Source of the DNA: an uncultured Bacteroidia bacterium
GTDB taxonomy: Bacteria; Bacteroidota; Bacteroidia; Bacteroidales; F082
NCBI GenBank assembly: GCA_902801465.1
Contig: CADCIH010000008.1
Span: 4,772 to 68,771 of the forward strand
Direction: 5' to 3'
Length of the DNA stretch: 64,000 nucleotides
The notes beneath the pieces were generated by a model. It saw only the letters and a list, made by a program, of their open reading frames with translations, made no database searches and was not told the DNA's origin. A program made the position numbers and the translations under genes. Positions 54,413 to 64,000 of the stretch are shown one piece after another (positions within the stretch are counted from its first letter, which is position 1; each line of letters opens with the position of its first letter).

Positions 54413-54470
54413 GGCTTTGCTATTCTTGTTGGAATGCAAAGATATGAAAAAAACGAGAAAAGAAAGAAAA

Positions 54471-54914
54471 TCATGCTGCTGGCATCATGGTTTCGCAGCG
54501 GTCGATAATCTTATTGGCGACTTCGAAGCCTGAATCGCATAGGGCTTTGGTAGGAATTCCGTCGTAATTCATATAGAGGAGGATGGTTTCATAGCCCATG
54601 TTAAGCCAATAAAGCAGTTTTTTGTCGCGTTTTGCTACGGCTTCCTGATAAGCTTCGATATGGACTCTGGTGCGGCGGTCTTCTCTGACGTGAAACACTC
54701 CATCCAGTGCCATAAGGACACCGAGCCACAGGTAGTTTCCGGCGGCGCGGACATATTTTTCATCTTCATATTGGAAACCCTCGTCATCGAGTTTTCCCCG
54801 TTCTTCAAGAATCTCCCGGGCATTGTCAACATACCGTCTAGCCTCTTTGATAGGTTCTCTTTTTTTCATTGGGGTAAGTGGTTTGGTCCGGCTAAGGTAA
54901 GTCTTTTTTTTCAT
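54471..54914 (-). CDS. DUF5618-like protein
   Basis: PIKEARRYVDNAREILEERG...KYVRAAGNYLWLGVLMALDG resembles the DUF5618 family (from memory). A tatctttg box lies at about 54972. Confidence 0.4.
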   Translation of the reverse strand: MKKKTYLSRTKPLTPMKKREPIKEARRYVDNAREILEERGKLDDEGFQYEDEKYVRAAGNYLWLGVLMALDGVFHVREDRRTRVHIEAYQEAVAKRDKKLLYWLNMGYETILLYMNYDGIPTKALCDSGFEVANKIIDRCETMMPAA

Positions 54915-55162: not shown

Positions 55163-55309
55163 AAAATCATGCTGCTGGCATCATGGTTTCGCAGCGGTCG
55201 ATAATCTTATTGGCGACTTCGAAACCTGAATCGCATAGAGCTTTGGTAGGAATTCCGTCGTACTTCATATAGAGGTGGATGGTTTCATAGCCCATGTTAA
55301 GCCAATAAA
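55163..55309 (-). pseudogene. Orphan 3' fragment of a second DUF5618-like gene copy
   Basis: About 146 bp are near-identical to 54467-54612 (offset 696 bp, a few mismatches). The 5' part of the gene is absent. Confidence 0.7.
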
Positions 55310-55475
55310 ACATAACCGACTCTCCTTTGCCATTTTCTCATTTTTCGTTTCCAGTATTGCTCCCCAAAGTGTCAACTTTTTCTAGGTTAAGACAGTCTGT
55401 AAAGTTTAAGCCTTGACCGCCAGTTTTGATCTGTCGGTCAAGGCTATAAATTAAGTTATTTCTTCTCAGAAACCC

Positions 55476-56525
55476 TTACTTTAGAATGGCTTCTAAAGCC
55501 TCTTTATTGATGACCTGACATCCACCTAAGGATTCTCCAATAAAAGATTCCTCGGAATAGTGCATATTATCTTTTTTAGTTCCTGCATACACTCCACAAT
55601 CACCTCCAATAGTTGTCTTCCCGTTAGCAGTAAGGTCTTTCAGGGTCCATTCTAGGTTAGGCCAATCAAAGAAAAACTCATATACATTCGATTCCTTGAT
55701 ATTGGCTTGATAGGTATCATTGTGAGCCATCTCGTCAACTCCACCTTCATCGTTATTGACAAGCATCCTCCATTGGAAAGCTGTATTGCCGAAAGGCTGG
55801 ATAAAATGATATTCCCAATAAATAAAATTAGGTTGCATCCATTCAGGATAATTATAATGGATTCTATAGTTAAAAGTGAGATTTTCATCTGAATTGGGGA
55901 CATAAGAACCGTTGTCATTGAAAGTATAAGCATGGTTCAACTTTGTTGAATAAAGATATGAACGTGATACAACGCCTTCCCAATATTTCATATTACTATC
56001 CTTGACAATGACAAGGGCACCAGCAGGCCTCATCTCCACATGATGGGAGGAATGATCGGCATCAACCATGATTTTGGCATTACCAATGCCTACAATCGCT
56101 TCTTCGCCATTAATAACACTCGAAATTTTTTCTATCATTAAGGTAGATAACCTTTCTGTCCCTTTGATAGTCCAGCACAAGTCATTGCCATTTTCTATCA
56201 CATCGGAAATGGCTACAACAGTGTATTCACCATGGCTAAGTTCCAAAGTTGTAATCATATTCTCGTTATAATCTTTAAGCTTTTTGGTGTCAGAAGCTAT
56301 TAAGCCACCATTCCGATCGTAAACCAGCAGGTTAATCCGAAGCTGATTATTTGAAGATAAATCTGTTAAGCTTGATTCATTAAGAACATAAGGAATCCAC
56401 TTATTGATGACCTCATAGGGTGTTACTTCAAAACTCACCTCTCTTGAGATTGAGATATCTTCATTTTTGCATGATGACATTATTAGGGCCATCATTGCCA
56501 AGCACATAACAATATATTTTTTCAT
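55476..56525 (-). CDS. Lipoprotein of unknown function
   Basis: Lipobox ALIMSSC. 349 aa. Confidence 0.55.
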   Translation of the reverse strand: MKKYIVMCLAMMALIMSSCKNEDISISREVSFEVTPYEVINKWIPYVLNESSLTDLSSNNQLRINLLVYDRNGGLIASDTKKLKDYNENMITTLELSHGEYTVVAISDVIENGNDLCWTIKGTERLSTLMIEKISSVINGEEAIVGIGNAKIMVDADHSSHHVEMRPAGALVIVKDSNMKYWEGVVSRSYLYSTKLNHAYTFNDNGSYVPNSDENLTFNYRIHYNYPEWMQPNFIYWEYHFIQPFGNTAFQWRMLVNNDEGGVDEMAHNDTYQANIKESNVYEFFFDWPNLEWTLKDLTANGKTTIGGDCGVYAGTKKDNMHYSEESFIGESLGGCQVINKEALEAILK

Positions 56526-56542
56526 AACATTTTAGTTTTAAG

Positions 56543-57184
56543 TTATTTCACAATATTAAATAAGTAAGCAAACGAGAGCATCATCGAGCTGATTTTGGTG
56601 TCAAAATTACCAGCCAGGGGGCTCATACCTAAGTTATAACGGGCATCAATCATCAATGACGAACTTTCGTTGATACTGGTTTTATAGGCCAATCCAGCGG
56701 TAATCATTACATCGCCTCCTTTGATTACCCCTGTGCCATAAGTGGCTCCTTGATAGTGCAGCTGTGAAGGAGTGGTCCCAACAATCTTCACTGCGGTCAC
56801 GCCGGCTAGCATAGCAACGTTTGGCGTGAAATAGAGCTGAGCCAACATAGGCACTTCAATGCAATTGGTTGTTAAAGTTGCATCATCGAGTTTGACACTA
56901 CGTCCACCATACATGGCTTCAATTTGCACTCCAAGTAAACCAGTTCCGCCACAACTCAGTTCGGAACGACGTCCGAAGTGGGCATGAAAAACACCTCCGA
57001 ATTGATAGCCGAGGCCCATTTGGAAATCAAGGTTTTCGAGTTTGGAATGGCTACCCATGTCCATTCCGAGTCCGACTTTCGGTCCAATCGCAATGCGATA
57101 AGGTCTGTCATCCTCACAATCCTGTGCGAACAGACCGTTGCAGCAAAGAGCTGTCAACAGAAGAAACAATAAATGTTTACGCAT
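56543..57184 (-). CDS. Outer-membrane beta-barrel protein (small porin/OmpW-PorT-like)
   Basis: Signal peptide, alternating hydrophobic beta-strand pattern, and an aromatic-rich C-terminus (SFAYLFNIVK). Confidence 0.6.
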   Translation of the reverse strand: MRKHLLFLLLTALCCNGLFAQDCEDDRPYRIAIGPKVGLGMDMGSHSKLENLDFQMGLGYQFGGVFHAHFGRRSELSCGGTGLLGVQIEAMYGGRSVKLDDATLTTNCIEVPMLAQLYFTPNVAMLAGVTAVKIVGTTPSQLHYQGATYGTGVIKGGDVMITAGLAYKTSINESSSLMIDARYNLGMSPLAGNFDTKISSMMLSFAYLFNIVK

Positions 57185-57220
57185 AAATTTAATGTTTAAA
57201 ATTAATATATTAATAAGTAG

Positions 57221-58774
57221 TTAGATTTTCTTCAAATTAATTTGGGCTTGCTTGCTTCCGCAGTTTTTCCCGTCAACTTTGGCAGAAGCGGTAGCCTGCA
57301 CTTTTTTACTCTCATCCACTTTGACTGTTGTCATTATGGTTTTCGACTTATCAGGTTCAAGTTTTCCGTTAAACGGCGTATTCTTTCCTGCAACATTGAG
57401 CGATGCCGAAACCGATACTTCCTCATCAGAAGTGTTTGTGATTACAACTTTCACTGTTTGGTTATCGTGCTCATCCGCATATTCCGCAGTTACAGTTGGA
57501 GTTCCGATAATCAAACTAATACAGCTAATTTCCATTTCCCATGAATCTTCCCAAAGCAACACAGATTGACCGTCACCAACATAAGTGGCTTTGCCTCTCA
57601 AGGTACAAATACGTTTTTTTTGCTCAAAGATTTGTGGAGCAACTTTGAAACCAAATGCTAGGCCTTCTTTGCAAACTACATAATTGCCATCGCCGCAATC
57701 GAATTCAAGCTTTATTTTATCACTATCAAATACAGAGGGAACGGACAATGAAAATTCAAGTTGCTCCGTATCTTTGGAATAAACATAATAGCGGCATTTG
57801 TTATCTGGCCAGACGGGATCGAAATCTCCTTCAAGCAGTTCGACAACACCATATTTCCCTTCCACCAAAACAATGGACCGAGCGTTACAAATAGATTCGG
57901 CGTTATCAAATTGGGCGGGCGCCACAACGTCACCGGCTGATGTCTTATAGCCCATTTTCCCGTTCTGTTCAAAGGTGGTGTAATTGGCGTCAGCAACAGG
58001 TTCGGCGTTGGCAGGAGGAACTATCAGACCATTTCCATTAGGTCTGAAAGAATAGTCATAAGGATCCACCGACTCCTTGTTTTCCTTTTTCACATCGTTT
58101 TTTACAACATGAAATTTTGTATCAAAAATAACGAACTTGCCACCTCTCACTTTTGCCAAGGCCAATCCTTCAGAGTTGAATGAAGTGGCCCAAACGAATT
58201 TTTCCCCGTTTGGAAGACAATCCATTCCTTTTCCTGTAAAATCATTCGATCTTTTGTATCTCCGTGGATGAGTGGAGTCCTTCGAATTCTCCTCCATTAC
58301 AGCCCATCCTTGGCGCACTGGCATTGTTTCCAAATATGAGCATTCTAAAACGATTTGTCCTGCACTATCCATGTATCCCTGTTTCCCGTTCTCACTTCCT
58401 TGAGCAACGGTGAGGTAGCCTTCGGAGAAATAAGGATATTTTGTGATGTAATAGTCGCCGTTTACATGCTGGAAGTGGTGAGGGGCAACTTCAGAAAGAA
58501 AACCAAGAATCTTTTTTTCTTGCAATACAATGGCAAATCCATCGGAAAACATCGTGATTGCATCGGCATTGATATTGGGGGGAAGAAGTTCCTTTCCATC
58601 CCAGTCGATGAGGTGGATTCCTCCTTGGGAGCCTATACATCTAAAGATATCGGTGCTATAATGCGTGATGCTTTCATAGTTAGGTTGGACCATCCACCTA
58701 ACTGTTTCTGCTTTGAGTGTTGCAACTCCTAATGTTAATGATAAAAGAAGTAAAATCTTTGTTCTCATGATCAT
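57221..58774 (-). CDS. Secreted WG-repeat (KWG-like) protein with a C-terminal beta-sandwich-like region
   Basis: Signal peptide. Repeated motifs of the form F.EG.A.V...GK.G.ID..G..V (e.g. GKQGYMDSAGQIVLE, GKMGYKTSAGDVVAP, GKYGVVE). Confidence 0.6.
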   Translation of the reverse strand: MIMRTKILLLLSLTLGVATLKAETVRWMVQPNYESITHYSTDIFRCIGSQGGIHLIDWDGKELLPPNINADAITMFSDGFAIVLQEKKILGFLSEVAPHHFQHVNGDYYITKYPYFSEGYLTVAQGSENGKQGYMDSAGQIVLECSYLETMPVRQGWAVMEENSKDSTHPRRYKRSNDFTGKGMDCLPNGEKFVWATSFNSEGLALAKVRGGKFVIFDTKFHVVKNDVKKENKESVDPYDYSFRPNGNGLIVPPANAEPVADANYTTFEQNGKMGYKTSAGDVVAPAQFDNAESICNARSIVLVEGKYGVVELLEGDFDPVWPDNKCRYYVYSKDTEQLEFSLSVPSVFDSDKIKLEFDCGDGNYVVCKEGLAFGFKVAPQIFEQKKRICTLRGKATYVGDGQSVLLWEDSWEMEISCISLIIGTPTVTAEYADEHDNQTVKVVITNTSDEEVSVSASLNVAGKNTPFNGKLEPDKSKTIMTTVKVDESKKVQATASAKVDGKNCGSKQAQINLKKI

Positions 58775-58793
58775 ATAATTAAATTATTTTACA

Positions 58794-60734
58794 TTATGGT
58801 TTTACTGGAGTTGAAGATGCGGTAGCCTTGAGTTTTTCTCTCACCGCTTCCGTATAGTCTTTAAACTCGGGATTATCACCAGCGGATTCCCTTACCTTTT
58901 CAAAACACCAACGGGCTTTCCCCCAGTCCTTTTCAGCGCCACGATTATATAAAAAGTCGCACCCCAATTCATAAAACACGGATAGATTGTGGCTATCCTC
59001 GCCATATAACTCGTATGCTTCCATCAGCAAGGCATGCGCTTTGAAATTGTCTGCCTTAAGATTGACATTCTCCCGCATCAGTTTCCACTCATTTTGATAA
59101 AACTCTAGCCCTTTCGTTCCAGCGGCAGAAGAATCAAAATAGATTCGGCTCATTAAGAATATCGCTTCGGGATTACCTGTGTCAGCTAGCGACTGAAGCA
59201 TCAATAAACCTTGACTGGCTTTTTCTTTTTCAAGCAAAAGTATTGTTGCATTTTCCAGATTATTCTCTGCATCCTTTTCTGGCTCAAAAACAGCGCTGTT
59301 ATCATCAAAGAATTGAAAATATGCAAAGGTTCCTCCTCCGATAAGAATCGCAGCAATGCCAACAATAGCAACAAGTCCTTTCCATTTTTTCTTCGAAGTC
59401 TTTGTGGTTTCAGATTTTTCTGTTTCAGCCTTTTTCTTGTTTTTTTCCTCAACTTTACGTCGGGACTCTTCCTCTTTTCGCGCTTTTTCTTCCGCTTTTC
59501 TGCGGGCTACTTCCTCTGCTTTACGGCGCTCCTCTTCTTCCTTTCGGGCTTTTTCCTCCGCTTTTCTACGGGCTACTTCCTCTGCTTTACGTCGCTCCTC
59601 TTCTTCCTTTCGGGCTTTTTCCTCCGCTTTTCTACGGGCTTCTACTTCTTTCCGCGCCCTCTCCTCTGCTTTTCTGCGGGCTTCTTCCTCTGCTTTACGG
59701 CGTGCCTCTTCCTCTGCTTTTCTACGGGCTTCTTCTGCAGCTTTACGGCGGGCTTCTTCCTCCGCTTTACGGCGTGCCTCTTCCTCTGCTTTTTTGCGTG
59801 CTTCTTCAGCAGCTTTACGGCTGGCTTCTTCCTCTGCTTTTCTGCGTGCCTCCTTTGCAGCTCTTTTTTGGGCTAATTCCTCAGCCTTTCGCATTTCATA
59901 TCCTTTGATGCTTTCCACATTTAGAATTTCGCCATCCAATACCGATTGGGCCACCCGAACAAGCAACTTTGCCATTGGCCGATCCCAGGGATTTAGGGAC
60001 ATACACCATTTAATTATAGCCTTCAAGTTATCTGAGTGATTACTTTGCCATTCAGGAATCAATGCTCCATTACGCTGCAACACGCCACCTTGACCAAAAA
60101 ACGGAAGGTCCTTATTGATGAGTTCGTACATAGTTACACCAAGAGCCCAAATATCTGAGGCGTTCACGGCTTCAACATCCTCGCCGAACATTTCGGGAGC
60201 CATATAAGGAATGGATCCGCCCATTGTTTTTGCTTTAGATCCGATTGCAGAATTGTTTCGTAAAGTACTTCGAAACTTTACGCTGATACCAAAGTCAGTA
60301 ATCAAGAAATTACCTTCCTCGTCAATGAGGATATTGTCAGGCTTTATGTCGTGATGAACGATTCCCTGTTGATGCAGGTATTCAAGACCCGAAGCCACAT
60401 CGCGAATGAAACGCCACATGGTCTTTTCGTCGATATTGCCCATAAAGTCAACACACGAACCGGGACAATATGGCATCACCAAATAAGGACGATCGTCGCA
60501 AATATCATAATAGTAGGCATGGAGCAGATGCGGGTGCGACAAGCCAAAGGTAGTCACAAACTCCTCCTTAAACTCTTGAACGCCTCTCGAATCCAAGGCG
60601 ATATACACTTTGACCGCGACATTAATACCCAACTGCCTATCTTGGGCAAGCCAGACCTCGCCATACGACCCCCGACCTTTCATTTCTAAAAGGAAGTACC
60701 GATCGTCGAATAATGTATTCTTTGATAAAACCAT
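58794..60734 (-). CDS. Membrane Hanks-type Ser/Thr kinase: kinase, ER/K helix, TM, Sel1/TPR-like domain
   Basis: GRGSYGEVWLA, VAVKV, HHDIKPDNILI, DFGIS and PYMAPE. About 150 aa of (A/E/R/K) repeats. TM GLVAIVGIAAILIGGGTFAYF. C-terminal Sel1-like repeats. Confidence 0.9.
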   Translation of the reverse strand: MVLSKNTLFDDRYFLLEMKGRGSYGEVWLAQDRQLGINVAVKVYIALDSRGVQEFKEEFVTTFGLSHPHLLHAYYYDICDDRPYLVMPYCPGSCVDFMGNIDEKTMWRFIRDVASGLEYLHQQGIVHHDIKPDNILIDEEGNFLITDFGISVKFRSTLRNNSAIGSKAKTMGGSIPYMAPEMFGEDVEAVNASDIWALGVTMYELINKDLPFFGQGGVLQRNGALIPEWQSNHSDNLKAIIKWCMSLNPWDRPMAKLLVRVAQSVLDGEILNVESIKGYEMRKAEELAQKRAAKEARRKAEEEASRKAAEEARKKAEEEARRKAEEEARRKAAEEARRKAEEEARRKAEEEARRKAEERARKEVEARRKAEEKARKEEEERRKAEEVARRKAEEKARKEEEERRKAEEVARRKAEEKARKEEESRRKVEEKNKKKAETEKSETTKTSKKKWKGLVAIVGIAAILIGGGTFAYFQFFDDNSAVFEPEKDAENNLENATILLLEKEKASQGLLMLQSLADTGNPEAIFLMSRIYFDSSAAGTKGLEFYQNEWKLMRENVNLKADNFKAHALLMEAYELYGEDSHNLSVFYELGCDFLYNRGAEKDWGKARWCFEKVRESAGDNPEFKDYTEAVREKLKATASSTPVKP

Positions 60735-60738
60735 ACCT

Positions 60739-62484
60739 CTATCCTAACTTTTTTTTCATATCTCTTATCTGAGCATCCATTGAGTATTTGTCGATTTTGA
60801 ATCCCTTTTGTATTTCGGCTGGAATTCTGCTCACAATTTGCTCAAACTCCAACTCAATCTCACTTAATTCATTTAGTGTCTTGCATTTCCTTATTCTTTT
60901 GGCAAAATACCCCTTTAACCAATCTACTGTATTCTTTGTATGATCATAGTTTTGTCCGCCGAATCGAATCAAGTACTCTACACACTTCTCTTTGTTAGGA
61001 TCGCGATTGAATTCGCTCATCGCTTCCTGTTCATTATCAGCTGTTAATGCAGTTACAGGGTTATTCTGTTTTTCTTGAAGCTCATTGGGCGCATTATTTT
61101 TCTCTGGTTCAGGCACCGGGGTTAATGTGGAACTAAGGGACAATTGACCTTTTACTTCTGGAACACTGTCGGTTACCTTGTCTGTCGTTCCCTTTTGACT
61201 ATTCTTGTCTTTTGGGTCTAGTGTGCTTTTTAGATTCTTTGAATCGGAACCGCTTTCGTCTTTTTTTTCGAGATCGTTCTCTATTCTTTGTTTATTTATA
61301 AATTCAATACTGTCTTTGACAAATTGTTCAATAAATAATTCAGCCTGACTTTTGTATTGCCCATTTTTAAACTGTCTCAAATAGGAACGATAGCCATTAA
61401 CGTCGTAGCACTGTTCAAAGAAATCACGATCCTTCTGTTCGTTTTTCAAACGACAATAATCTTTTACGAAAAAGCCCCCACCAACTAAGATCAAAAGAGA
61501 AGCTACCATCAGGATGTATTTTAATCTTCTACTTTTCTTACCATTCCCAACTGAGTCATTAGGGAGGTATTCATTTTGTAATTCAACATCACCATCAGGA
61601 GCGGTTTCCCCTCTGATTATCTCACATAAAACAACTGTGACATTGTCGTACCATTCGTTGCGTTGGGCTGCATCGAAAAGAGCGTCACGGCATTCCACCA
61701 TTGATTGACGGTTTTCGCTTATGATATCTTCAATGTTTTCCGTATCAATACGACGACCATCCTTATATGTCTTACGGTCGCGCAAGACTCCACTTAACCC
61801 ATCGCTACAAAGAAGGAAAATGTCATCTTTATAAACCTTGAAATGATTACTTTCTGGTTTCGCTTTTTTGTCAGGATCGCCTAGACTTCGAGTTACGATA
61901 TTTCCATAAGGATGGTCAAAGGCCTGGTCTATGCTTATCTTGCCTTCGTCAACAAGTCCTTGAACGTATGAGTGGTCTTTGGAAACTTGCCGCAAGCCAA
62001 CGCCCGGACGGAACAAATAGGCACGACTATCCCCGCACCATGTTAGGCAAATCTCTCCATCTAGCAACCATGCCAAAATAATGGTGCTACCCATGCCTTC
62101 ATGTTCAGGATTGTTCCGCGAATCAGCTTTTATAGCTGCATCAGCCGCCACTACAACCTCCTCCAAATAACTGATTCGAGATTTGGTGTTATGACAGATG
62201 CTTTCTGTTATTTTGCCAGGAGCGAAATATCTCTCCACTGTTTTGATGGCAATGTCAGATGCGACCTCACCCGCATTCATTCCTCCCATACCGTCAGCAA
62301 CCACCATGAGGCATCCTGTTTTCGAAAGCTCCACCACATCGTCTCCCATAAATGCCCCCTTCTTTTCATCATTGAGAAGACAATCCACAAACATATTGTC
62401 TTCATTACCTTCCAAAGGAGCGTCGGGTTTAAACTTTCCTGCCGCATCTGTACGGGCTGCAAGCCTGAACTGTATTGATTTCAT
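60739..62484 (-). CDS. Membrane-anchored PP2C-family Ser/Thr phosphatase
   Basis: MVVADGMGGMNAGEVAS, LLCSDGLSG and DNVTVVLCEI. TM LKYILMVASLLILVGGGFFV. C-terminal domain of about 240 aa with no recognised function. Confidence 0.9.
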   Translation of the reverse strand: MKSIQFRLAARTDAAGKFKPDAPLEGNEDNMFVDCLLNDEKKGAFMGDDVVELSKTGCLMVVADGMGGMNAGEVASDIAIKTVERYFAPGKITESICHNTKSRISYLEEVVVAADAAIKADSRNNPEHEGMGSTIILAWLLDGEICLTWCGDSRAYLFRPGVGLRQVSKDHSYVQGLVDEGKISIDQAFDHPYGNIVTRSLGDPDKKAKPESNHFKVYKDDIFLLCSDGLSGVLRDRKTYKDGRRIDTENIEDIISENRQSMVECRDALFDAAQRNEWYDNVTVVLCEIIRGETAPDGDVELQNEYLPNDSVGNGKKSRRLKYILMVASLLILVGGGFFVKDYCRLKNEQKDRDFFEQCYDVNGYRSYLRQFKNGQYKSQAELFIEQFVKDSIEFINKQRIENDLEKKDESGSDSKNLKSTLDPKDKNSQKGTTDKVTDSVPEVKGQLSLSSTLTPVPEPEKNNAPNELQEKQNNPVTALTADNEQEAMSEFNRDPNKEKCVEYLIRFGGQNYDHTKNTVDWLKGYFAKRIRKCKTLNELSEIELEFEQIVSRIPAEIQKGFKIDKYSMDAQIRDMKKKLG

Positions 62485-63344
62485 TTTACATTTCCTTTCT
62501 TGCTGTTTTCGACAGGTGTCAATTTTCCGCCAGAAACCACTTTTGGTTTTTTGTCATCATTCTCTTCTTTACCTTTTTCGGGTTTCGTTTCATTTTCGGA
62601 GGTTTTATCCTGAATGATGGAATATAGTTTCCAAGCAGAACTGTCATTATAGGCAAAACTGCATAATTCAAAGGTGACTGTACCGACTAATGTAATATGA
62701 GGCACAATGAAAAAGCCTGCAATGACCTTTTGGGTGTTTTGTGGAGGAAGCACTTCAAATCCTGAGGCTTTCACATCAACTTCTTGTACAAATGACAAAT
62801 AGACATTGTATTCGGTGTCTTTGGTTATTTCACTCTCCGTTGGTTGCATGACCCAAACCATCCAGCCATTCACTTTACCCGTTGTATCTGCCAAATTCAA
62901 GCCTTGGCTTTGGCATGATAATTTGAAACAATTATCGCGCAATTCCTTAAATGAGTTTTCATCTCTTTGTAGCTTTATAAACTCCTTTTCACCATAGGGC
63001 TTTATGGAAGTTTCAAATAAAGTTGGAGTGTATTCCCTATTCTCTTTATACGAATCATAATTGGAATCATAATTCCACGGATGTGTAACTCTATCATCAA
63101 CAATCAAACCATTTTCAATCAAAATACCAAATGAATACATTTTGCCGAATTCGGGTTTGTTGTCCAATCCATAGGCGTTGCCCTTACTGTCTTTAAGCTG
63201 ATAAGACTGTTCTACGAGGACAACCGCTTTGTAGTTGGTCTCTTTAATGAGATTGTCACTGGCAAAAACGCCTAAGAAGTTTTGTGCGTTGAGTACACCT
63301 ATTTCTATTAGGGCAAAAAACAGAAGAAATAATGTCTTTTTCAT
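62481..63344 (-). CDS. Secreted protein of unknown function
   Basis: Signal peptide MKKTLFLLFFALIEIGVLNA. Its stop overlaps the PP2C start (ATGA at 62481-62484). Confidence 0.5.
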   Translation of the reverse strand: MKKTLFLLFFALIEIGVLNAQNFLGVFASDNLIKETNYKAVVLVEQSYQLKDSKGNAYGLDNKPEFGKMYSFGILIENGLIVDDRVTHPWNYDSNYDSYKENREYTPTLFETSIKPYGEKEFIKLQRDENSFKELRDNCFKLSCQSQGLNLADTTGKVNGWMVWVMQPTESEITKDTEYNVYLSFVQEVDVKASGFEVLPPQNTQKVIAGFFIVPHITLVGTVTFELCSFAYNDSSAWKLYSIIQDKTSENETKPEKGKEENDDKKPKVVSGGKLTPVENSKKGNVK

Positions 63345-63376
63345 CTTTATACTATTATTATGATTTGACTTATTGG

Positions 63377-64000
63377 TTATTTATTAATCATTGAAATGGG
63401 AACCACACGATCCTTCCATTTTCCATCTCTTGACCCACTCAAAGCGCCCAGTCTAGTTGCGCCGGAAAGGATACCTACACAAACCGGCTTTCCATCATGA
63501 ACGGTGAAGACAGGTCCTCCTGAATTTCCATGGTCGGTTTCACTGTTGTCAAGTTGAATACAGCCAAAGTCATTCAACCCATTCACAGCCACAGTTGACT
63601 CGACGAACAGCGGATCGACTTTCCCTCTATTGCCTTCACCCATAGGATATCCCAGAATGTTAAGTTTAGTTCCAATAGGCATTTTAGTAGAGTATTCAGG
63701 GTCAATCCGTATGGACCCTTTTTTGTTAGTTTGACACCATGCATAGTCACGATAGTCGGTTATATCAACACGTTCACGAGCAGGAAGGAAAACGCCTCCT
63801 ATCTCAACCGGCTGGGAAGTCTGATAATTGTATTTACCCCAATGGAATGGATTGTCATTTAATGAATACTTCATCTCAAAACTGTCATTTGGCGAAGTAG
63901 CCATAAGCTTAAAGGATATATCGTTGGGAAAAGCATCCATGAGTGCAGTGATTTCTCTCGAGTCAAAATTGACACAATGTTGAGCAGTCACAAAACGCCC
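63377..64000 (-). CDS. Trypsin-like serine protease, 5' end outside the window
   Basis: TAQHC (His motif) and GNSGGPVF (Ser motif). The frame is open to the window edge. Confidence 0.75.
   Translation of the reverse strand, partial: GRFVTAQHCVNFDSREITALMDAFPNDISFKLMATSPNDSFEMKYSLNDNPFHWGKYNYQTSQPVEIGGVFLPARERVDITDYRDYAWCQTNKKGSIRIDPEYSTKMPIGTKLNILGYPMGEGNRGKVDPLFVESTVAVNGLNDFGCIQLDNSETDHGNSGGPVFTVHDGKPVCVGILSGATRLGALSGSRDGKWKDRVVPISMINK

Follow-up and report, generated by a model that had tools for sequence, protein, structure and literature searches.

A Bacteroidales operon of Hanks kinases, a PP2C phosphatase and FHA proteins that may gate periplasmic proteolysis

In Mycobacterium and Corynebacterium, the fhaA-fhaB-pstP-rodA-pbpA-pknA-pknB cluster brings together several FHA proteins, a membrane PP2C phosphatase and two Hanks kinases, one of which is a receptor. 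The threonine phosphorylation pathway of the Pseudomonas aeruginosa H1 type VI secretion system (H1-T6SS; TagQRST-PpkA-PppA-Fha1) also holds a membrane kinase with a periplasmic domain, a PP2C for reset and an FHA reader in one locus, and its kinase is thought to be fed by an outer-membrane lipoprotein and periplasmic partners. DegS and Mycobacterium tuberculosis MarP (Rv3671c) are trypsin-fold proteases that are tethered to the inner membrane, face the periplasm and carry an intact Ser-His-Asp triad. To our knowledge, Hanks kinase/PP2C/FHA signaling is almost unstudied in the Bacteroidales, which dominate the gut microbiota. Here we describe an operon of an uncultured member of this order (genome G000, 97.9% complete) that resembles each of these systems in part. 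It lies at the end of a 64,000-nucleotide stretch of contig C8 (G000:C8:4772-68771), which is called the window below.

The operon comprises nine co-directional genes spaced by -4 to 41 nt. From first to last, they encode a triple zinc-ribbon protein with an FHA domain (ZnR-FHA), a kinase with an FHA domain (kinase-FHA), a protease with an FHA domain and a transmembrane (TM) helix (FHA-TM-trypsin), a secreted protein (p287), a membrane PP2C (PP2C-TM), a receptor kinase (kinase-TM-Sel1-like), a WG-repeat protein, an outer-membrane β-barrel and a lipoprotein (Table 1). The first six genes constitute a core cassette that recurs in about 80 loci across many Bacteroidales families. A first-pass annotation of the window had proposed an operon of seven genes, and we recovered its seven minus-strand open reading frames (ORFs) with the gaps it gave (17, 36, 19, 4 and -4 nt, from the lipoprotein gene up to p287; the p287 stop codon overlaps the PP2C start as ATGA). 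Its list omitted the 32-nt gap between the protease and p287 genes. The seven genes are real, but the unit has nine, running 3.9 kb past the window end: extension upstream reached the operon start and revealed two more same-strand genes before the protease gene, with gaps of 41 and 9 nt. Across its nine genes, the complete operon thus encodes three FHA domains, two kinases and one PP2C.

The domain calls for the kinase, PP2C, WG, barrel and trypsin proteins held in Pfam and NCBIfam searches, and a hydropathy scan supported the proposal of cytoplasmic catalytic domains for the kinase and PP2C, with their tails in the periplasm. All other products visible in the window are exported, as had been claimed; in the same scan, p287, the WG protein and the barrel each showed a signal peptide, and the lipoprotein a lipobox. 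The FHA and catalytic signaling domains are therefore cytoplasmic, while the protease domain, p287 and the tails lie outside. Both kinases, the PP2C and the protease retain their catalytic motifs.

Our preferred reading, held with moderate confidence, is that the operon encodes a self-contained trans-envelope phosphothreonine signaling module that gates periplasmic proteolysis. We infer all steps of the mechanism from what can be seen in the sequence, namely domains, catalytic and phosphothreonine-binding residues, topology, gene order and conservation. The receptor kinase would use its periplasmic Sel1-like domain to sense an envelope cue; in this lineage, the domain probably touches the co-inherited trio of WG protein, barrel and lipoprotein. 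The receptor kinase and the cytoplasmic kinase-FHA would phosphorylate threonines of cassette proteins, and the three FHA domains would bind these phosphothreonines, gathering the components at the membrane. FHA occupancy at the cytoplasmic end of the protease would alter its periplasmic trypsin-fold domain, an inside-out form of control. p287 and the short LTP[IV] motifs in the tails of p287 and PP2C would be likely docking or cleavage elements, coupling proteolysis to the phosphatase, and the PP2C would reset the system. A bolder version, which we put forward only tentatively, is an inside-out proteolytic switch of an undescribed kind, in which FHA-read phosphothreonine controls the cleavage or capture of the LTP[IV] tails on p287 and PP2C, and in which this operon and other envelope operons stand under a new family of leader RNA. 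We found no description of the cassette in the literature. Hanks kinase/PP2C/FHA signaling is a known kind of system; the unusual feature is its output, an FHA-tethered protease with a pseudo-protease partner. The linkage of the sensor to the trio, the LTP[IV] motif, and the covariation and distribution of the leader RNA are new here.

Compared with the actinobacterial cluster, the operon adds the FHA-TM-protease, the pseudo-protease and variable envelope accessories. RodA/FtsW, penicillin-binding proteins and PASTA domains are absent from its products. A role like that of FhaA-FhaB-PstP-RodA-PbpA-PknA-PknB or of PrkC/StkP, with the kinases tuning peptidoglycan or outer-membrane biogenesis during envelope growth and division, would fit an operon that unites two FHA proteins and two Hanks kinases with a membrane PP2C, as well as a receptor kinase with an extracytoplasmic sensor domain. 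However, the PknB_PASTA model (NF033483) gave 176 bits, short of its cut-off of 450, and matched the kinase domain only. The cassette is also patchy rather than universal in its clade, and that it was not found in about 97-98% of the related genomes searched is ill-suited to a housekeeping role. We regard a growth and division regulator as improbable. Compared with the H1-T6SS pathway, the FHA-bearing output here is a periplasmic protease and not a secretion apparatus; the sheath protein TssC (PF05943) had no match in the G000 genome.

The protease consists of a cytoplasmic FHA domain, one TM helix (residues 162-180), a coiled stalk and a periplasmic serine protease domain. Its catalytic residues H298, D375 and S450 are invariant in 23 homologues, as are the FHA residues G59, R60, S76, R77, H79, N103 and G104, and more than 2,239 full-length homologues were found. 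Unlike HtrA/DegS, the protein has no PDZ match in Pfam and ends at the protease domain. In contrast to HtrA and MarP, it carries a cytoplasmic FHA end, implying control from inside the cell.

The product of the next gene, p287, was modeled with AlphaFold2 from a 39-sequence alignment at a predicted local distance difference test score (pLDDT) of 85.8. In a Foldseek search of the PDB, all of the top 50 matches were chymotrypsin-fold proteases (probability 0.99-1.0, E 3e-4 and weaker). They included Deg2/Deg9, HtrA1, 3C/3CL and SplA, and Rv3671c and HtrA/Deg proteases were among the best. This assignment came from the fold search alone: a sequence-profile search against PDB chains gave no link, and profile comparison with the active protease of the operon gave no signal (hhalign probability 0.6%). 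Since the modeled fold is of the trypsin type and the 39 homologues have no conserved His, Ser or Cys column, p287 is best read as a catalytically dead chymotrypsin-fold pseudo-protease. The first-pass annotation had spoken of protease effectors in the plural; we found one intact membrane-anchored protease and one such dead partner. All 66 p287 homologues examined have a signal-peptide-like N-terminus. The tail is disordered, with LTPV at residues 275-278 and a Lys-rich C-terminus.

The PP2C keeps the metal-binding motifs DGMGG, GDSR, SDG and DN, and its Stp1-type match in NCBIfam (2e-52) falls below the equivalog cut-off. The periplasmic tail has LTPV at residue 454 and ends in a small helical domain, and a TM helix follows the catalytic domain in 80 of 80 full-length homologues. 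We also noted that in the uncultured Bacteroidales RUG245, the PP2C and one receptor kinase (L026:12540-14465 and L026:17695-19419) carry the same periplasmic TM-plus-helical tail domain. Through this shared domain, kinase and phosphatase may read a common periplasmic partner or pair with each other.

The LTP motif recurs in these disordered periplasmic tails. LTP[IVL] is present in 43 of the 66 p287 homologues, always near the C-terminus and mostly followed by a Lys-rich end. PP2C tails contain 23 sites in 12,092 residues, all C-terminal to the TM helix, against 0.63 expected from the local background. The enrichment over background ranges from 11-fold (PP2C) to 43-fold (p287), and the residues flanking the motif are not conserved. 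The motif also occurs in the periplasmic tail of the extra kinase of an eleven-gene version of the operon. The p287 model shows the motif as a strand with a pLDDT of about 86 between flanks of about 50. Because a confident strand sits between low-confidence flanks, the model suggests that it docks on the p287 fold itself. An LTP sequence in ZnR-FHA was set aside as a form of the same signal, as it belongs to a cytoplasmic protein and immediately precedes the FHA domain, where the structural context is conserved.

The kinase-FHA protein has 458 residues and is cytoplasmic and RD-type (Pkinase, 8e-38; C-terminal FHA, 2e-9). It resembles PfkB of the KKP module (PfpC-PfkA-PfkB) of Pf prophages, in which PfkA is a kinase with a cold-shock domain and PfkB a kinase with a C-terminal FHA domain (PMC11341870). 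In both loci a PP2C is linked to a pair of Hanks kinases, of which one has a fused FHA domain, and KKP modules have been reported in some Bacteroidetes (PMC11341870). The operon could then be a kinase/phosphatase toxin-antitoxin system of this type (PP2C, cold-shock-domain kinase and kinase-FHA), with the other genes as passengers. However, the defining cold-shock domain was found in neither kinase; the PP2C and one kinase sit in the membrane, the PP2C with a tail in the periplasm; gene order and size differ; and prophage context was not seen. Moreover, the protease and p287 are conserved together with the rest of the six-gene core as one unit. We consider a KKP-type system very unlikely.

The receptor kinase carries the motifs VAVK, HHD (non-RD), DFG and APE. 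An ER/K-rich spacer (window 59417-59882) separates its kinase domain from the TM helix. This spacer varies in length among relatives: kinases with the same ends are 646, 649, 552, 556 and 477 residues long. The ectodomain was modeled by AlphaFold2 as eight helices (pLDDT 88), and its best Foldseek matches were Sel1-like repeat proteins, at weak E values of 0.02-0.2. Its profile matches consensus TPR proteins (E 1e-3). The Sel1-like repeats announced by the first-pass annotation thus stand as a resemblance at the level of the fold only, as Pfam gave no Sel1 match even at E<=5 and returned only TPR_ELP1 (E 0.17).

We found this ectodomain only in loci with the WG/barrel/lipoprotein trio, namely our own, L004/L005, L007, L009 and L033. 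Ectodomain and trio co-occur in five of the five operon versions that have either, and in no other locus. The WG-repeat protein is conserved in L004, L007, L009 and L033. The trio was also found as an operon of its own in another family of the order (L144:3132-6359; G258:C18), with no kinase, FHA or PP2C genes nearby. Because the ectodomain tracks the trio, yet the trio also stands without kinases, it looks like a separable outer-envelope module that is read or served by the receptor kinase of this lineage. The lipoprotein belongs to a family of 564 representatives (E<=1e-3), and Pfam, PDB-sequence and profile searches gave no match by which to name it.

To place the operon among its relatives, we scanned one genome per species. 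At least 200 species had the cassette, and 80 loci were kept for comparison with hidden Markov models built from four close clusters; a word search with p287 had found these four close clusters only. Carriers include Muribaculaceae, Prevotella, Paludibacteraceae, Rikenellaceae, Tannerella and others, and the core cassette is present in the named isolate records Leyella stercorea and Bacteroides sp. 519. The gene order is kept far outside close relatives. The operon matched no characterized envelope-stress regulon, an alternative that the first-pass annotation had raised. In nearly all loci the core order is ZnR-FHA, kinase-FHA, (extra kinase), FHA-TM-trypsin, p287, PP2C, (small FHA), followed by 1-4 receptor kinases. 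The closest relative has the same nine genes, with a 75% identical p287; its neighboring genes differ, with MatE at one end and an MNT/HepT pair plus NAGLU at the other. The eleven-gene version, at 53-55% identity, has one more kinase and a small FHA protein. Downstream accessory genes vary and encode BACON, TPR, Sel1 and CarboxypepD_reg proteins. In a search for a conserved neighbor such as a vWA, integrase or regulator gene, no flanking family occurred in more than seven of the 80 loci. The cassette was present in 6 of 400 genomes drawn evenly across the order and in 5 of 149 genomes of the genus, at 47-52% identity to this copy.

Such a patchy distribution, together with a GC content of about 0.41 against 0.50, raises the possibility of an anti-phage or inter-bacterial conflict system, in which ectodomains detect phage adsorption or envelope attack, kinases respond and the protease is the effector (compare the Stk2, PD-T4-6 and KKP kinases). 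The variable flanks, other defense-type genes in the window and the MNT/HepT pair beside the locus of the closest relative fit this idea, as do receptor kinases that vary widely in number and ectodomain and kinase domains that score well against the PADLOC mad6 and PD-T4-6 models. However, the PADLOC matches cover generic domains only (mad6, PD-T4-6 and MkoA in the kinase domains; LmuA and RT-protease in the trypsin domain), with no match to a system and no vWA, methylase or nuclease partner. The sole active protease is turned toward the periplasm and carries no toxic domain in the cytoplasm, the accessory genes encode binding-type envelope proteins (BACON, TPR, Sel1 and WG), and integrase or prophage context was not seen. 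A 2020 eLife paper on conflict systems has FHA in other contexts only. We judge a conflict system to be unlikely, if less so than the growth regulator.

The first-pass annotation had also drawn an analogy to the TerY-P triad of a vWA protein (TerY), a PP2C and a Ser/Thr kinase, which Gao et al. reportedly described in 2020 as anti-phage. In both, a PP2C is linked to a Ser/Thr kinase in a locus of patchy occurrence. The analogy fails on the vWA/TerY protein, which was found neither by Pfam among the nine operon proteins and flanks nor in about 80 related loci, and PADLOC returned no TerY-P.

Several observations count against a signaling module that gates proteolysis. The FHA match at the C-terminus of ZnR-FHA is weak (E 2e-4). 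That the nine genes form one transcript is inferred from their spacing, and the operon encodes no transcription factor or transporter as an output. The TM-scores of the p287 Foldseek matches are low (0.3-0.5), so that the fold call depends on the consistency of the matches and not on close superposition. The LTP-bearing loci are related by descent, and their counts overstate the independent support; the co-occurrence of ectodomain and trio likewise comes from one clade plus L033. Finally, patchy distribution and low GC content would suit a conflict system too.

Upstream of ZnR-FHA lie a 450-nt spacer, a divergent gene for a PD-(D/E)XK Rpn-like protein and uvrB. The spacer contains a Bacteroides-type -7 box, TATTTTTG, directly followed by a structured leader element, which suggests that transcription starts at this box. 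The operon of the closest relative shares the leader. An alignment of 21 copies gave a rod-like fold, and a covariance model found the element upstream of the cassette, on the same strand, in 14 further loci that span several families. Among 150 sampled genomes of the order, 20 (about 13%) carry it in 1-4 copies each, as do 13 of the 61 sampled genus genomes, our own included; overall, a carrying genome has 1-5 copies. In a 45-member alignment, fitted to the covariance model and so favoring the pairing figures, 93.2% of cells were paired compared with 45-50% in slid controls. Compensatory changes were seen in 42 of 55 pairs, with 386 double-change cells against 98±8 in shuffles. An Rfam search of the leader gave no family match. 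The three other copies in the genome precede operons of lipoproteins and unknown envelope proteins. One such operon (L096:3131-7423; G000:C17) encodes a lipoprotein, a protein with a weak tubulin/FtsZ-like GTPase match (E 1.5e-3) and a 964-residue protein with a Ppx/GppA (actin-fold) segment. The closing stem of the leader, AGAAGGCG / CGCUUUCU, runs into a U-tract, and because of this an attenuator is a reasonable guess. We regard the leader as a candidate for a new cis-acting regulatory RNA of envelope operons.

At its 5' end (L002:13836-13887, minus strand), the ORF call for ZnR-FHA (272 residues) begins at a TTG. The true start is probably an ATG 17 codons downstream, judging from homologues and the conserved N-terminus MTKRCKNCG. 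At the other end, a stable hairpin beginning 24 nt past the lipoprotein stop codon is the likely end of the transcript. Terminator-like minus-strand sites are not enriched within the operon (13 against 10.9 expected). The operon accounts for three of the four FHA domains, one of the two PP2C domains and two of the seven kinases of its genome. A second Ser/Thr module (G000:C6:120661-126374) has a 252-residue PP2C, a 167-residue FHA protein and an 843-residue kinase within 6 kb.

Table 1. Features of the operon, its leader and its downstream edge. Plain positions are those of the window; others name genome and contig, contig of G000, or locus.
Feature	Position	Strand	Evidence
Lipoprotein, 349 aa, last operon gene; family without Pfam match	55476-56525	-	ORF list, lipobox MSSC
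Small outer-membrane β-barrel, signal peptide	56543-57184	-	OMP_b-brl_2 4e-9
Secreted WG-repeat protein, beta-rich C-terminal part	57221-58774	-	WG_beta_rep 2e-15, signal peptide
Receptor Hanks kinase, TM 453-471, 175-aa ectodomain	58794-60734	-	Pkinase 4e-44
Membrane PP2C, TM 322-340, 241-aa periplasmic tail	60739-62484	-	PP2C_2 1e-12; Stp1-type 2e-52
p287, secreted 287-aa protein, best read as pseudo-protease	62481-63344	-	AlphaFold2 model, Foldseek
FHA-TM-trypsin gene, 3' part (207/497 codons)	63377-64000	-	Trypsin_2 1.5e-6 in window part
FHA-TM-trypsin, full gene, 497 aa	G000:C8:68148-69641	-	FHA 5e-16, Trypsin_2 8e-9
Stable hairpin, likely transcript end	55402-55452	-	Folding free energy (dG) -30.1 kcal/mol, z -5.3; weak U-tract
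Orphan copy of DUF5618 gene 3' end (54467-54616)	55163-55312	.	150 nt, 97%
Leader RNA, ~190-270 nt, before operon	G000:C8:71838-72199 = L002:13838-14199	-	Covariance model
Further leader copies, own genome	C17:10077-10423 (+), C12:23248-23537 (-), C24:10570-10817 (+)		

The first-pass annotation had described the block as AT-rich, beginning at a truncated gene copy and apparently horizontally acquired. The composition (GC 0.38-0.43 against about 0.50 for the genome) and the truncated copy, a 150-nt repeat at 97% identity, are both real. Horizontal acquisition of the operon is plausible because of its low GC content, the few genus carriers at such low identity and the different flanks in the closest relative. 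No att sites or integrase were found at the island. A search for an empty site through the DUF5618/lipoprotein flank failed, since the genus has DUF5618 in multiple copies and no homologue of the flanking lipoprotein. The DUF5618 gene itself lies at window 54471-54914; genes and fragments give five matches in the genome, and many genus genomes have several copies. Recombination between paralogues may account for the fragment at the island edge, which is not necessarily an insertion scar.

If the operon does work as a signaling module that gates periplasmic proteolysis, linking an FHA domain to a protease on the far side of the membrane would give a phosphorylation signal a new outward route across the inner membrane. 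With its variable sensor ends (Sel1-like, BACON, TPR and WG), the cassette looks like a reusable chassis that could serve different envelope or surface cues, which would give it relevance to colonization, phage contact and competition. With Leyella stercorea and Bacteroides sp. 519 among the carriers, genetic work on the cassette may be feasible.

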